Virus record (IMG/VR): IMGVR_UViG_3300045594_000116
Coordinates: 1-64,000 of that record
DNA from: a virus
Taxonomy: Duplodnaviria; Caudoviricetes
Reading direction: 5' to 3' (one strand)
DNA length: 64,000 nucleotides
Position numbers and translations under genes: made by a program
The notes under the pieces: model-generated
The model's input: the letters and a program-made list of their open reading frames with translations, nothing else
What the model was told of the DNA's origin: nothing
Databases searched by the model: none
In this document: positions 52,512 through 59,320 of the stretch, piece after piece
Layout: each line of letters starts with the position of its first letter
Numbering within the stretch: position 1 is the stretch's first letter

Positions 52512-53873
52512 TTATTTATTTACATATTCCACTTCTTCTTTGACAGATATCACTTCATCGATTTCACTGTCAAGCTTCTGAAGATCTTTCTCCATATCTT
52601 TATATCTAGGACGTTCTTCATCCTCGATAAGAGACTTCATGGAATTCATAGAGAATAAGGCTGTAGTTTCAGTATGCTGGGCAAGAAGCTGCTCAAGTTC
52701 TCTAGTCATGACCTGTACTTCTGGCTGTGCTGCTTTATTATCCCGCTCTTTGATAAAGTGGATAAGATCTGCAAAGGTGAATGTCATAAGAACCTTAGTA
52801 GCTACGTTAAACGGAAGATATGCACGAGCATCCTGCTTAAGCATCCCCTGTTGAACAAGCTGTCCGTATACCATTGCTAATTCGTTACCAAGCTCTTCTC
52901 CAGTCTTAGAAACTTCTTTGTCGAAAAGCGTGATAAGATAATGCTTCTTAAGATCATAATCTCCAAATGGTAATGGAGAAATGAACTGAGATTTAGAATA
53001 ATCTACATATCTCTGACTCTCCTGAGAGATACCAGCAAAATGCCTGGTAATCTGTTGGGAAGTGGATCTCGAGAAGTCATGGAAGAAAATCGTACATGCT
53101 GTTACACGAAGGACATCGGTCATATCAAATCCGAATCCTTTTACAAAATCGAATATGGTATATGGATTATCTGAATGGATAATATCCACATACTTACCTT
53201 TTGTCTGAGGCTGCATATACACTCCTGTATCTACAGCTACCTCTTCGTCATAAGCATCCCCGTTTTCATCGAACTTATGCTCATACTGCCCTTTAATTCC
53301 AGATAATGGAGCAAATCCAAACTTATCTGCTACCATGATTCCATCATCAATAAAGTCCTCAAAGAATTCTCTTTCAGCAGCACCGTACAGAGAATTTATG
53401 ATCTTGATACAGAATGGGTTAGACAGATCTCTCACATGGCGAATGAAATACTTATAAGCTCTAATAGAGCCACCGATCAAAAGATAGTTTCTTCCGTCAT
53501 GAATACGATCTGAAATGTTCAGGAATTTGAATGCATCTGAGCACTGAGCAAAATCAGAAAGATATGTATTATCATATGAAATCATCATGACAATATTACT
53601 CTGAGCAATAGTAGATTCATGCCCTCTGCCTACTACCCTCTTGATATGCTCAAGGCGTTTTTCATAATTTTCATCAGCATGTTTACCAATACATACTCGT
53701 GCGGCTTCAGCACAAGTATATGAAGCATTAGAGAAAGAAATGAGCTGTGAGGCCATAAAACGGTTAGTGCCTACCTCTTTATCCTCCTCCTCGAGTAAAC
53801 GCGCTTCTTTGTCAAACTTGCCTTCTGGTTGGTGCCTGAATAAGCCTTTCAGCCACGTAAAAATCTTAACCAT
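52512..53873 (-). CDS. thyX: FAD-dependent thymidylate synthase, extended/duplicated form
   Basis: AARVC, GHES, SR...QITRH....SQESQRY, DARAYLP, ER...AQPE. Confidence 0.9.
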   Translation of the reverse strand: MVKIFTWLKGLFRHQPEGKFDKEARLLEEEDKEVGTNRFMASQLISFSNASYTCAEAARVCIGKHADENYEKRLEHIKRVVGRGHESTIAQSNIVMMISYDNTYLSDFAQCSDAFKFLNISDRIHDGRNYLLIGGSIRAYKYFIRHVRDLSNPFCIKIINSLYGAAEREFFEDFIDDGIMVADKFGFAPLSGIKGQYEHKFDENGDAYDEEVAVDTGVYMQPQTKGKYVDIIHSDNPYTIFDFVKGFGFDMTDVLRVTACTIFFHDFSRSTSQQITRHFAGISQESQRYVDYSKSQFISPLPFGDYDLKKHYLITLFDKEVSKTGEELGNELAMVYGQLVQQGMLKQDARAYLPFNVATKVLMTFTFADLIHFIKERDNKAAQPEVQVMTRELEQLLAQHTETTALFSMNSMKSLIEDEERPRYKDMEKDLQKLDSEIDEVISVKEEVEYVNK

Positions 53874-54954: not shown

Positions 54955-55707
54955 TTATTTCCTCCCTTTTCTAAACTCTTCATAAGCATCAATAACTTCT
55001 TTAGCTACATCTGCTCTTTCTTTTACATCATACCCATTCTCGACTGCAGCTGTATTAAATGATACAGTGATATTCACTTGCTTTACTTCTTTAGCCGGAT
55101 AGCAGAGGTGTGCGAAATCAAAGGCGTCAAATTCCTCTTTTACGTACATCAGATACTTTAGATCAGATTCGTGAATATCATTCTGAGAATGCTTAGCAGT
55201 AACTTTGTCTTTAATGGCATTACTAGAGCTAATCATCTTGTATACCAGATCAGGCGTTGGAAGTTCAAATGCATAAGCAAGTTTGCTTATTTCATTAGGC
55301 AATTCAGAATGAATGATACCATTCGCATAGAACGGAGAATCTTCATCGTCAGATGCATTTTCTTTCATCCATCCAAGACGATAATAGAGATTGGAAAACC
55401 AATATCTATCCATGATGAGAATTCCACCATTGTCTAAATGCCTCTGCCCGATCTTTTTCATATAGTCGAACATATCAACCATATAAAGACTGCTGATAGC
55501 ATTACTGGTAAGATCTTCCTGAACACCATATCTACCAGAAAGATACTCAGTTACAAAATATGATGCCTTACTCTGATAACGTGGGAATGATACAAGTTTT
55601 ACATCATGCCCATATTTCTGCTCGATGTGATTTAATAAAACTTTACTGTTCGTTTCTTTAAAGGAGCAATCAAGCCCCTCAAATACGATAAGTTGTCCTT
55701 TACGCAT
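54955..55707 (-). CDS. tmk: Thymidylate (dTMP) kinase-like protein
   Basis: LIVFEGLDCSFKET, SFPRY, DRYWFS, PDL, DIHE; start MRKGQ after AGGAGG; TACA-N6-TA at 55731-55742. Confidence 0.85.
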   Translation of the reverse strand: MRKGQLIVFEGLDCSFKETNSKVLLNHIEQKYGHDVKLVSFPRYQSKASYFVTEYLSGRYGVQEDLTSNAISSLYMVDMFDYMKKIGQRHLDNGGILIMDRYWFSNLYYRLGWMKENASDDEDSPFYANGIIHSELPNEISKLAYAFELPTPDLVYKMISSSNAIKDKVTAKHSQNDIHESDLKYLMYVKEEFDAFDFAHLCYPAKEVKQVNITVSFNTAAVENGYDVKERADVAKEVIDAYEEFRKGRK

Positions 55708-56049
55708 ATTCTTATTACCTCCTATTGGTTTACTTAATTGTAACGCGTATAATAATTTTGCACAGATAACCCCTATCCAATTAAGGATAGGGGTTAAACT
55801 GTGTAAGATAGCATAATTCATTTAGGGTGGGATGTTTGCACCGTCTCGAACTCAATCGATTATAAGCGGTACTTCTAAAAAGTTATCTACGTTTGCTAAC
55901 GCTAGTCATCATGAATTTCAAATATTTGATCTGGTATGTGCATTATCGGGATCAATCGAAATCCGGAAAGTCAGGTGATTCACAAGAGATAACTAGAGCT
56001 ATGATAATAGCTCTATAAAAAATAAATCAGCGTGCGCTGATTGAAAGAC

Positions 56050-56364
56050 ATAAAGAAGCCGGCCGGCGCCAATATGGCCGGCCTCTTATATAATCCGAGT
56101 TTTAGATTCGAAGATCTCGGAACTTCATTTAGCCGCACACAGCAGCCTTTTGTCGGCAAGTACGCCGACTGATCGGCTACGATCACTCGTAGCCCGTACA
56201 TAATACCACCCGAATCATCACGAGTGGGATTTTGAATCATACAGCGCCGATTTCCCGCTATCAATGCCTAGTACCTTAGGGTGGCTTCATGGACGGATCA
56301 ATTTCCAAAGCACACAAACCGTATGATAACTATTGGCTATGCGGATGCGGATCTTTGTATGATT
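56050..56364 (-). ncRNA. Candidate ~310-nt structured non-coding RNA
   Basis: AACA-N6-TA promoter at 56364-56375; GC-rich relative to the genome; several stems; GCCGGCC/GGCCGGC hairpin plus U-rich end; no RBS-supported ORF. Confidence 0.55.
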
Positions 56365-56402
56365 ACATCTATGTTTGATACAAATTATTTTTTACAAAAG
56401 TT

Positions 56403-56431
56403 ATCCCTCTACCAGCCGAAGGTAGAGGGAT
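56403..56431. terminator. Terminator-like hairpin
   Basis: atccctctacc-agccgaa-ggtagagggat. Confidence 0.65.
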
Positions 56432-56546
56432 GTTGTGAAGGAATACTTGCAAAGACTGAACTTTCATATCATATTTCCGAAACAGTAATAGACAAGAATT
56501 GAGCCGATTCTTTTCTATTACATATATGTCAGTATCATATATATTT

Positions 56547-57356
56547 TTACAAATCCGACATCGTGGTTGTTTCGCATTCTCCGATAAAGATATCATTAGT
56601 TCCATCATCGTTAGGCTGACGTTCTATGGTTGATTTATCAGAGAACTGAATCTCATATCTATAATCGTCAATATCATACATGAATATCTCAGTTGCTGGA
56701 GCTACGAATGGTTTAGTACCATCGTCTTTCGGCAGAATAACTTTGCTCAATAACTCCAAGAAGTCTTCTATATCTTTTGGAGTATTCAGCATATTGTCAC
56801 GGAACCGTACAGCGATAATATCTTCTCTGTTTAAATCACCATGCTTCATGATAGCAGATACTGCATCAAGATCTGTACGAATTACAACAGAGTCATTCGT
56901 TTCTACTCGACTCTCTTTAATGAAGTCTTCCATATCTTTAGATATAGAACCATCGATATTCTCGAGATAGCATCCCTGATGCCATTGAATGAATGCAGAT
57001 GCAATCTTCATTCTAGGCCCAATTCCATATTTCTTGATATCTGTAGTGGTTACTTCTTTAACAGCTTTCTTGTAGATCAATCCTGTACAAGAATCATCCG
57101 GTTCTCTGCTTAATACTTCTCCATTTGGTATGATGGTATAGATATTACAAGCCGGTATCGAATTGTCGTTGTCCATATCTTCCAGTATATGAGATGTAAT
57201 AAGAACGTATGTCGGAATGATCTGATCTTCCAATGAATCTTTATGGCATTCTATTGCATACAACAGCTCTGCAAGATTCTTAGAGATAGTCCTTCCCGAT
57301 AAAGGGCACTTGTCGTTAGTCTGCCCAGATGTATATACGTATATATTGATTACCAT
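56547..57356 (-). CDS. Hypothetical protein (269 aa)
   Basis: Long ORF, GGGGGA RBS. Confidence 0.75.
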   Translation of the reverse strand: MVINIYVYTSGQTNDKCPLSGRTISKNLAELLYAIECHKDSLEDQIIPTYVLITSHILEDMDNDNSIPACNIYTIIPNGEVLSREPDDSCTGLIYKKAVKEVTTTDIKKYGIGPRMKIASAFIQWHQGCYLENIDGSISKDMEDFIKESRVETNDSVVIRTDLDAVSAIMKHGDLNREDIIAVRFRDNMLNTPKDIEDFLELLSKVILPKDDGTKPFVAPATEIFMYDIDDYRYEIQFSDKSTIERQPNDDGTNDIFIGECETTTMSDL

Positions 57357-58460: not shown

Positions 58461-59320
58461 AAATACATGATAACTCCTAAGTGAGTTATCATGATTACTT
58501 GTGTCAAATATCCTAAATCTCTTATATCAAACTTTAAGTCTATAAAGAAAGTAGACTAGATACAAGAGAAAATAGTAATTCTAAATGTAAAAAATTAAAA
58601 CTTACACGACAGATAGATAGGGGGAGCATATACAACCAGCAGCAAACAACCCGCACTCTGTTTCTATTTCCAGGATAAAGAAGCGTAAATACATGATAAC
58701 TCAGTAGGAGTTATCATATCTCTTGTGTCAAATATCCTAAATCTCTTATATCAAACTTTAAGTCTATAAGAGTAAGTAATCTGGAATAGTAAGAGAAAAT
58801 ATAAAAAATTAAAAGTTACAGTACAAATAGATATTGGGGAGATGGATAGACACCAGGTAGCAACAACAGCCGCAGCCAATTATCCAACCTAGGAGAGGGT
58901 ATCGAGATATAGGAGAAGAAATGATAAGATATGATGATAACTCATAGTGAGTTATCATCTATCATATTTCTCTTATATCAAACTTTAAGTCTATAAAGAA
59001 AGTAGACTAGATACAAGAGAGAAATACCAATCCTAAATGTAAAAAATTAAAACTTACACGACAGATAGATAGGGGGAAGCATATAGAGCCAGCAGCAAAC
59101 AACCCGCACTCCGTTTTCAATCCAGGATAAAGAAGAACCAAATACACGATAACTCCTAAGTGAGTTATCGTATCTCTTTTGTCCTAAATCTCTTATATCA
59201 AACTTTAAGTCTATAAGAAGTAAGATATCCTGATATAAGAAAAAATGTAAAAAATTAAAACTTACACGACAGATAGATATGGGGGAGGCATATACAACCA
59301 GCAGCAAACAACCCGTGTCC
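58461..59320. repeat. Four imperfect tandem repeats (~180-245 bp) with conserved hairpins; candidate replication origin
   Basis: Units start near 58461, 58687, 58931 and 59140. Each has GATAACTC-N5/6-GAGTTATC, TCTCTTATATCAAACTTTAAGTCTATAA and AAAAAATTAAAA..TTACA..AGATA.GGGG. Confidence 0.9.

Follow-up and report, generated by a model that had tools for sequence, protein, structure and literature searches.

A probable structured RNA gene behind a late-type promoter in an uncultivated AR9-like jumbo phage

What occupies the 840-base gap that separates a 269-aa gene from a thymidylate-kinase-like gene (tmk) in the genome of an uncultivated AR9-like jumbo phage? The window analysed here, a stretch of 64,000 nucleotides, forms the start of a 229.5-kb IMG/VR virus record that is 91% complete. 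Inside the gap the G+C fraction is 0.48-0.50 across positions 56364-56046, compared with 0.33-0.38 in the flanks, and the region thus stands out as a G+C island. An earlier note, made from the sequence of the window, had read the island as an undescribed phage non-coding RNA (ncRNA); we refer to the RNA under study, which lies on the minus strand from 56364 to about 56046, as RNA-B. The tmk gene, whose true start as judged from relatives is the ATG at 55707, has the same orientation. No Pfam family was matched by the neighbouring proteins (269 aa, 169 aa and 184 aa), and tblastn searches with the DUF5662 and tmk proteins matched no close cultured phage. The features of the locus are listed in Table 1.

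Table 1. Coordinates of RNA-B, its helices and signals, and neighbouring features (window positions unless stated otherwise).
Feature	Position	Strand	Description
269-aa gene, no known family	56547-57356	minus	upstream edge of the gap
Candidate RNA-A	56400-56519	minus	about 120 nt; late-type promoter GACATATATGTA, +1 at 56519
Terminator upstream of RNA-B	56431-56403	minus	terminator scan; ends RNA-A
RNA-B upstream promoter element TGTAAAAAAT	56387..56396	minus	12 bases before the core
RNA-B late-type promoter core AACATAGATGTA	56375-56364	minus	AACA-N6-TA; fits the AR9 late consensus (PMC5312081)
5' rod domain	56235..56364	minus	P1, invariant internal loops, P2 (CCG/CGG), P3 (UCCG/CGGR), P4, apical hairpin
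P1, AAUCAUACA / UGUAUGAUU	56364-56356 / 56243-56235	minus	9 bp; takes in base 1 of the RNA
H1, CCACUCG/CGGGUGG	56206..56227	minus	7 bp
H2	56175..56194	minus	8 bp; GNRA tetraloop GUGA
H3, GUCGGC/GCCGAC	56152..56169	minus	6 bp
H4	56131..56147	minus	6-7 bp
H5, CCGAG/CUCGG	56094..56121	minus	5-6 bp; 16-nt loop
Terminator T1	56053..56087	minus	12-bp G+C-rich stem, U-rich tail to about 56046; extended form of a site from the terminator scan
Terminator T2	stem 56042-56025, U run to 56015	minus	8-bp stem and U run; terminator scan
Conserved non-coding element C	55768-56015	minus	between T2 and the tmk promoter; hairpin 56015-55994, terminator-like hairpin 55795-55768
ThyX-like protein	52512-53873	minus	453 aa; Thy1 domain at residues 254-399 only
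Looser promoter sub-class form TGTAAATAAA	52491-52524	minus	
Four tandem repeats, about 220 bp each	58586-59290	plus	three with exact TGTAAAAAAT at equal spacing, the fourth with one changed base
Further promoter sub-class copy	genome 119696-119729	plus	TGTAAAAAAT with one changed base

Relatives were sought in ENA and Logan assemblies by a word-indexed protein search with two neighbouring genes and a cluster look-up, some of the more distant ones coming from a profile search. The contigs found share the gene order and the gap with the window, and RNA-B is carried by 17 related metagenome contigs, comprising 16 loci of the window's own lineage and one distant lineage (L002), whose neighbouring proteins are 65% and 53% identical. 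The window lineage contributes eight distinct RNA sequences, including the window's own, which fall into two haplotype groups with apparent recombinants. Other relatives differ at this position. In L004 the likeness ends after the promoter and some 30 bases at the 5' end, beyond which lies an unrelated AT-rich body, and this locus is not counted as a homologue because it shares nothing further. In L008 the slot before tmk holds a 142-aa ORF, without a Pfam family, and a different G+C-rich island, without an Rfam match, whereas L006 and L010/L011 have no gap at the position of RNA-B. The L008 island (430 nt, positions 1583-2015 of that contig, plus strand) folds with z = -2.1 and contains what may be a 31-aa ORF, equipped with a ribosome-binding site.

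When the 5' rod was turned into a covariance model (R1), L002 scored 80.8 bits (E 2e-17), a match that is expected by construction because L002 is among the four sequences from which the model was built. With R1 the 229.5-kb genome gives no further copy, and L004, L006, L008 and L010 give no match; the family is therefore narrow and the slot variable. A DNA search of GenBank phages with the RNA-B region, an exact-pattern scan of viral contigs, and a related-locus look-up with either neighbouring protein all returned nothing. Two exact-pattern matches elsewhere proved to be chance, one (L007, metagenome contigs) lying inside a bacterial gene and the other (L031, genome contigs) in a Gemmatimonadales MAG of 66% G+C. 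We conclude that RNA-B comes from a small clade of uncultivated AR9-like jumbo phages.

The start of the RNA is indicated by its promoter. According to Lavysh et al. (2017, PMC5312081) the AR9 late consensus is AACA-(6N)-T-A/G, with the start at the last base, and the early consensus is AAATATATATTAT-(6N)-G. The sequence AACATAGATGTAA precedes the G+C island, which places the predicted +1 at A 56364, the same base that the earlier note had proposed as the 5' end. Its view that the RNA is driven by a late promoter agrees both with this published consensus and with the way the genome itself uses the motif: a ribosome-binding site and start codon follow within 60 nt at 25% of the 107 AACA-N6-TA sites in this genome, the corresponding range for ten control motifs of altered spacing or bases being 4-7%. 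The extended form RACAT-N5-TAA has 35 copies, at least 24 of them followed by a Shine-Dalgarno sequence and a start (21 counted by script and three missed through the script's offset), and the RNA-B promoter is among the few sites of this class that have no ORF behind them.

The genome also has about 40 copies of the AR9-type early motif TATATATTAT-ANNNNT-G(+1) and two RNA polymerase beta-like genes, and the transcription system is therefore taken to be AR9-like. From the promoter motif, RNA-B would be made late and by the corresponding phage polymerase. Compared with the AR9 late promoters, that of RNA-B adds an upstream TGTAAAAAAT element, which is kept in L002 and L004 with one or two changed bases. 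Across the whole genome the late class RACAT-N5-TAA typically lies some 5-25 nt before a ribosome-binding site, and the early and late motifs would permit a temporal gene map of an uncultivated phage to be drawn from sequence alone.

At the other end, a scan of the minus strand over 55600-56800 found six terminator-like sites compared with 0.7 expected, and a terminator-like end had already been noticed where T1 and T2 now stand in tandem. T1 is the likely 3' end, giving an RNA of about 315-320 nt, and T2 an alternative one, giving about 345-350 nt. Each is a G+C-rich stem-loop followed by a U-rich tail, as in intrinsic terminators, and the stem pairs covary: G-C becomes A-U in both stems of L002, a G-U/G-C swap is seen in T1 of haplotype 2b, and A-U becomes G-U in T2 of four variants. 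T2 of L002 has no U run. The true 3' end may lie past both terminators, because the conserved element C lies downstream without a recognisable promoter of its own; this element could extend RNA-B at its 3' end or be a unit in its own right.

What kind of molecule lies between these signals? All of the local helices proposed in the earlier note are present at their stated positions on the minus strand. Comparison of relatives shows that the fold begins with a 5' rod of 130-150 nt and continues as a row of five or six short hairpins, of which one keeps a GNRA loop. Within the rod, P4 is a 3-bp G/C helix that leads into a long apical hairpin, whose stems differ in sequence between lineages while the loop keeps UGAUC. 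Folding the window lineage and L002 separately by minimum free energy (MFE) yields one and the same 5' rod architecture. The minus strand folds at -115 kcal/mol (z = -3.9; none of 100 shuffles as good) and the plus strand nearly as well (z = -3.6), values so close that energy alone leaves the strand undecided. A long-range pairing, CCGCA/UGCGG, which would cross P1, had also been suggested. The complementary segments do exist, and the variable pair is kept in six of the eight close variants, in one haplotype through a change on both sides. The pairing is broken, however, in two apparent recombinants (L019 and L022) and has no equivalent in L002, so that relatives do not establish it.

Several smaller motifs were considered and set aside. 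A GAAA-receptor-like CCUAAG in the rod is lost in six of the eight close variants; no motif is common to the hairpin loops, as a sponge with a motif repeated in its loops would require; and there is no conserved UGUU by which the RNA might act as a decoy for the template-strand promoter element. The five GATC sites in RNA-B place it within the top 3% of windows, which is unexceptional.

The case for selection on this fold comes from an alignment, A5, of nine rows (eight close variants and L002). Standard pairs make up 92.1% of its 875 pair cells, as against 26-42% when the partners are slid by 1-3 columns. Changes on both sides occur in eleven pairs, compared with 3.3 ± 1.4 in shuffles (0 of 500 reach this number) and 2-8 when slid, although the shuffle statistics overstate independence because the rows amount to two lineages and two linked haplotypes with recombinants. 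Misalignment of L002 by MAFFT and 1-base shifts in H4 and H5 account for part of the unpaired cells and for some of the both-sided changes inside the rod; several such changes there and in P4 hinge on how L002 is aligned, the P4 change being register-dependent. RNAalifold recovers P1-P4, H1-H3, T1 and T2 from A5 unguided. In hand-checked pair tables G-C/G-U and U-A/U-G switches are numerous, and pairing breaks only three times, in each case at the end of a helix.

Individual helices illustrate the pattern. The seventh pair of P1 is A-U in the window lineage and G-C in L002. H1 of L002 has two pairs changed on both sides and two on one side, all of which still pair, and in haplotype 2 the H1 loop is replaced while the stem is kept. 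The closing pair of H2 goes from G-C to A-U in five variants; in L002 a different stem sequence still pairs and the GNRA loop is kept as GUAA. Changes in H3 among the close variants, C-G to U-G and G-C to G-U, maintain pairing as RNA on the minus strand only. In H4, G-U becomes G-C in haplotype 2 once the 1-base MAFFT shift is corrected, and L002 has three hairpins of other sequence where the window has H3 and H4. H5 is kept in all close variants, with UCGGA/UCCGA at the equivalent position in L002. The base of the rod is conserved in another manner: apart from the both-sided P1 pair, the window lineage and L002 agree at every base along about 23 positions of its 5' strand and 20 of its 3' strand; its internal loops are thus unchanged between lineages whose neighbouring proteins are 53-65% identical.

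In total 84 pair cells are G-U, and standard pairs reach 92% when read on the minus strand compared with 85% on the plus, in keeping with the earlier remark that G-U pairs favour the minus strand. This strand is favoured because the G-U cells, the promoter and the terminators all fit it. Pairs are kept through compensatory or wobble changes, as in structured ncRNAs and as the earlier note had proposed to check in homologues, across two lineages and their haplotypes; for so few sequences the structural evidence is good. As judged by this comparison, the helices are demonstrably under selection as RNA on the minus strand, and the element is single-copy, conserved and non-coding.

RNA-B matches no described class among those compared. 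None of the 4227 models of Rfam 15, which include RNase P, tmRNA, SRP, 6S, pRNA, T-box, riboswitches, group I and II introns, GOLLD, ROOL, raiA and HEARO, matches anywhere in the window at gathering score; between 55800 and 56600 there are only chance-level matches (E 0.66-8.7), all far below it, and L002, L004, L006, L008 and L010 give none at E <= 0.1. ARAGORN finds no tRNA and no tmRNA in the window, so that the impression that the ends fit neither tRNA, tmRNA nor RNase P holds, and the comparison with Rfam envisaged at the outset matched no family. T-box leaders have a conserved T-box sequence whose UGGN sits in an antiterminator overlapping the terminator, ahead of a gene related to aminoacyl-tRNAs. 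A T-box candidate, GGGUGGUA on the 3' strand of H1, is placed 120 nt ahead of T1, is replaced by AGGGGUA in L002 and has no Rfam match. The covariation, the lack of a conserved reading frame and the lack of a described family together support the original reading of an undescribed phage ncRNA.

What, then, might RNA-B do? That it is a functional structured ncRNA gene seems to us probable, and the best explanation overall, which we regard as reasonably likely, is an accessory structured RNA that stands alone, is made late and is about 315 nt long (about 350 nt if T1 is read through). The phage non-virion RNA polymerase would start at A 56364 from the AR9-type late promoter, and the transcript would end at the tandem intrinsic terminators T1/T2; these terminators, together with a 5' end buried in P1, suit a stable and strongly made RNA. 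RNA-B would then be a trans-acting scaffold or decoy that binds protein, putatively at the invariant base of the rod. A specific macromolecular contact there is suggested because the internal loops are invariant while stems, loops and the number of hairpins vary freely. An antisense search of the phage genome gave matches of 11-14 nt at chance level and none that reached 15 nt, which argues against regulation by base pairing. The presence, absence and replacement of the RNA among relatives point to an accessory function rather than to packaging or replication, and this function would appear to be gained, lost and swapped between relatives and not to be core. Taken together, the invariant loops, the lack of antisense targets and the variable presence favour a trans-acting protein-binding scaffold or decoy, although protein binding as the mechanism is put forward tentatively.

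The most interesting special case of this trans-acting reading is a decoy for anti-defence or host takeover, in which RNA-B would mimic an RNA ligand of the host or of a defence system and titrate its target late in infection. The slot between the 269-aa gene and tmk is variable in the manner of phage accessory and counter-defence loci: the window lineage and L002 have RNA-B there, L004 an unrelated AT-rich RNA behind the same promoter, L008 an ORF and an island, and L006, L010 and L011 nothing. RNA-B resembles no tRNA, CRISPR repeat, retron RNA or type III antitoxin RNA, however, and no repeats were seen in it, and we consider such a decoy unlikely.

The main rival is a leader that acts in cis, by attenuation or processive antitermination, on a nucleotide-metabolism operon of tmk and the ThyX-like gene. 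RNA-B and tmk are co-oriented, the tandem terminators are followed by a further conserved element and then by tmk, and the conserved nucleotides cluster at helix junctions, as they would in an aptamer. This reading is weakened because the tmk operon has its own late-type promoter, TACA-N6-TA with +1 at 55731, which is conserved in all lineages. In addition, about 150 nt and five hairpins intervene between P1 and T1, no alternative or antiterminator pairing between the two was found, neither riboswitch nor T-box models matched, and the same operon is found in relatives that lack RNA-B. A cis-acting role for the RNA is accordingly quite improbable.

Could the element instead function as DNA, its palindromes serving replication, packaging or recombination beside the origin-like non-coding region at 58.0-59.3 kb and its RNA-like structure being incidental? 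G+C-rich palindromes such as GGCCGGCC do lie about 1.6 kb from this AT-rich, repeat-bearing strand-switch region, and the plus strand folds almost as well as the minus; but many of the substitutions pair only through G-U on the minus strand, and the promoter at the start and the terminators at the end are all on that strand, which leaves a DNA-level role very improbable.

A small-protein gene can practically be dismissed: the earlier note had held that an 83-aa ORF (56013-56264), if translated and conserved, would speak against an RNA, and the frame, open in the window and in L005 (70 aa there, in an ATG form), has a TTG start without a ribosome-binding site, is reduced in L003 to a 37-aa C-terminal remnant though the neighbouring proteins are 96-99% identical, stops after 13 codons from the inner ATG in five of eight close variants and after 18 in L002, is replaced by unrelated short frames in L002 and absent from L004, and is crossed by H1-loop indels that are not multiples of three.

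We return to the stand-alone structured RNA, which we see as a new family within a known broad kind, the orphan structured phage RNAs. GOLLD, ROOL and the stable RNAs C and D of T4 are highly structured phage RNAs of this sort, whose function is not known. RNA-B is likewise recognised by its conserved folding. It is smaller than GOLLD and ROOL, matches them in neither sequence nor structure and has a much narrower distribution, and in contrast to GOLLD, ROOL and the T4 RNAs it lies away from tRNA genes, of which the window has none. The packaging RNA of Bacillus phages, phi29 pRNA, is made from an early promoter. RNA-B is like it in being phage-encoded, stable and multi-helical, with its own promoter, and in being seen as protein-bound rather than as an antisense regulator; it differs in lacking a match to the Rfam family Phage_pRNA, in being about twice as long, in having a late promoter, and, unlike an essential packaging part, in not being conserved across the phage group. 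With 6S RNA and Y RNA it shares a 5' end buried in a closing helix and an irregular rod whose most conserved bases lie in internal loops, but Rfam yields no match, both a central open-promoter-like bubble and a tRNA-like module are lacking, and the 3' half of RNA-B is an array of separate hairpins. In AR9 itself, the phage that resembles the present one in its early motif and its two RNA polymerase beta-like genes, the late (non-virion RNA polymerase) units share the AACA-(6N)-T-A(+1) core, and in the available part of Lavysh et al. (2017, PMC5312081) their promoters front protein genes or antisense starts, with no stand-alone structured RNA of this kind described.

Because RNA-B comes and goes among close relatives and yet has an invariant core, a specific macromolecular partner is worth seeking. 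It would be a clean case of an RNA made, as its predicted transcription implies, wholly by viral machinery; the immediate impact is limited because the family is narrowly distributed and no host has been cultured. Bacteria and phages have few structured ncRNAs above 300 nt, and the majority of those known have proved to be ribozymes, ribonucleoprotein cores or large assemblies. A bolder proposal is that RNA-B founds a new class of large structured phage RNAs and forms, with RNA-A, element C and the four promoter-bearing repeats, a late-expressed 'RNA island' at 55.7-59.3 kb. We give this little credence; if true, the island would be a swappable RNA cargo of AR9-like jumbo phages, with counter-defence, host takeover, ribozymes or ribonucleoprotein cores as its possible business.

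Some further observations concern the surroundings of RNA-B. The candidate RNA-A is more widely conserved than RNA-B: the window lineage, L002 and L004 share the stems and CGGCUCA loop of its hairpin and differ there only in the internal bulge of the stem, and the RNA-A terminator shows a compensatory change from A-U to G-C in L004. Element C contains a AAUCACCUGAC box that does not differ between the window lineage and L002, and a core of about 36 nt around 55838-55873 that L002 matches almost base for base. The N-terminal extension of the ThyX-like protein, some 250 aa long, has no Pfam match. RNA-A, RNA-B and three of the four tandem repeats stand behind promoters of one sub-class, TGTAAAAAAT-N12-RACA-N6-TA, so that the repeats may be transcribed into small RNAs with a G-run start. 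Finally, the terminator hairpin CCCTCTACC-loop-GGTAGAGGG, seen for instance at 56403-56431, recurs in 22 intergenic segments of the 229.5-kb genome, and forms a standardised, possibly mobile, terminator module.
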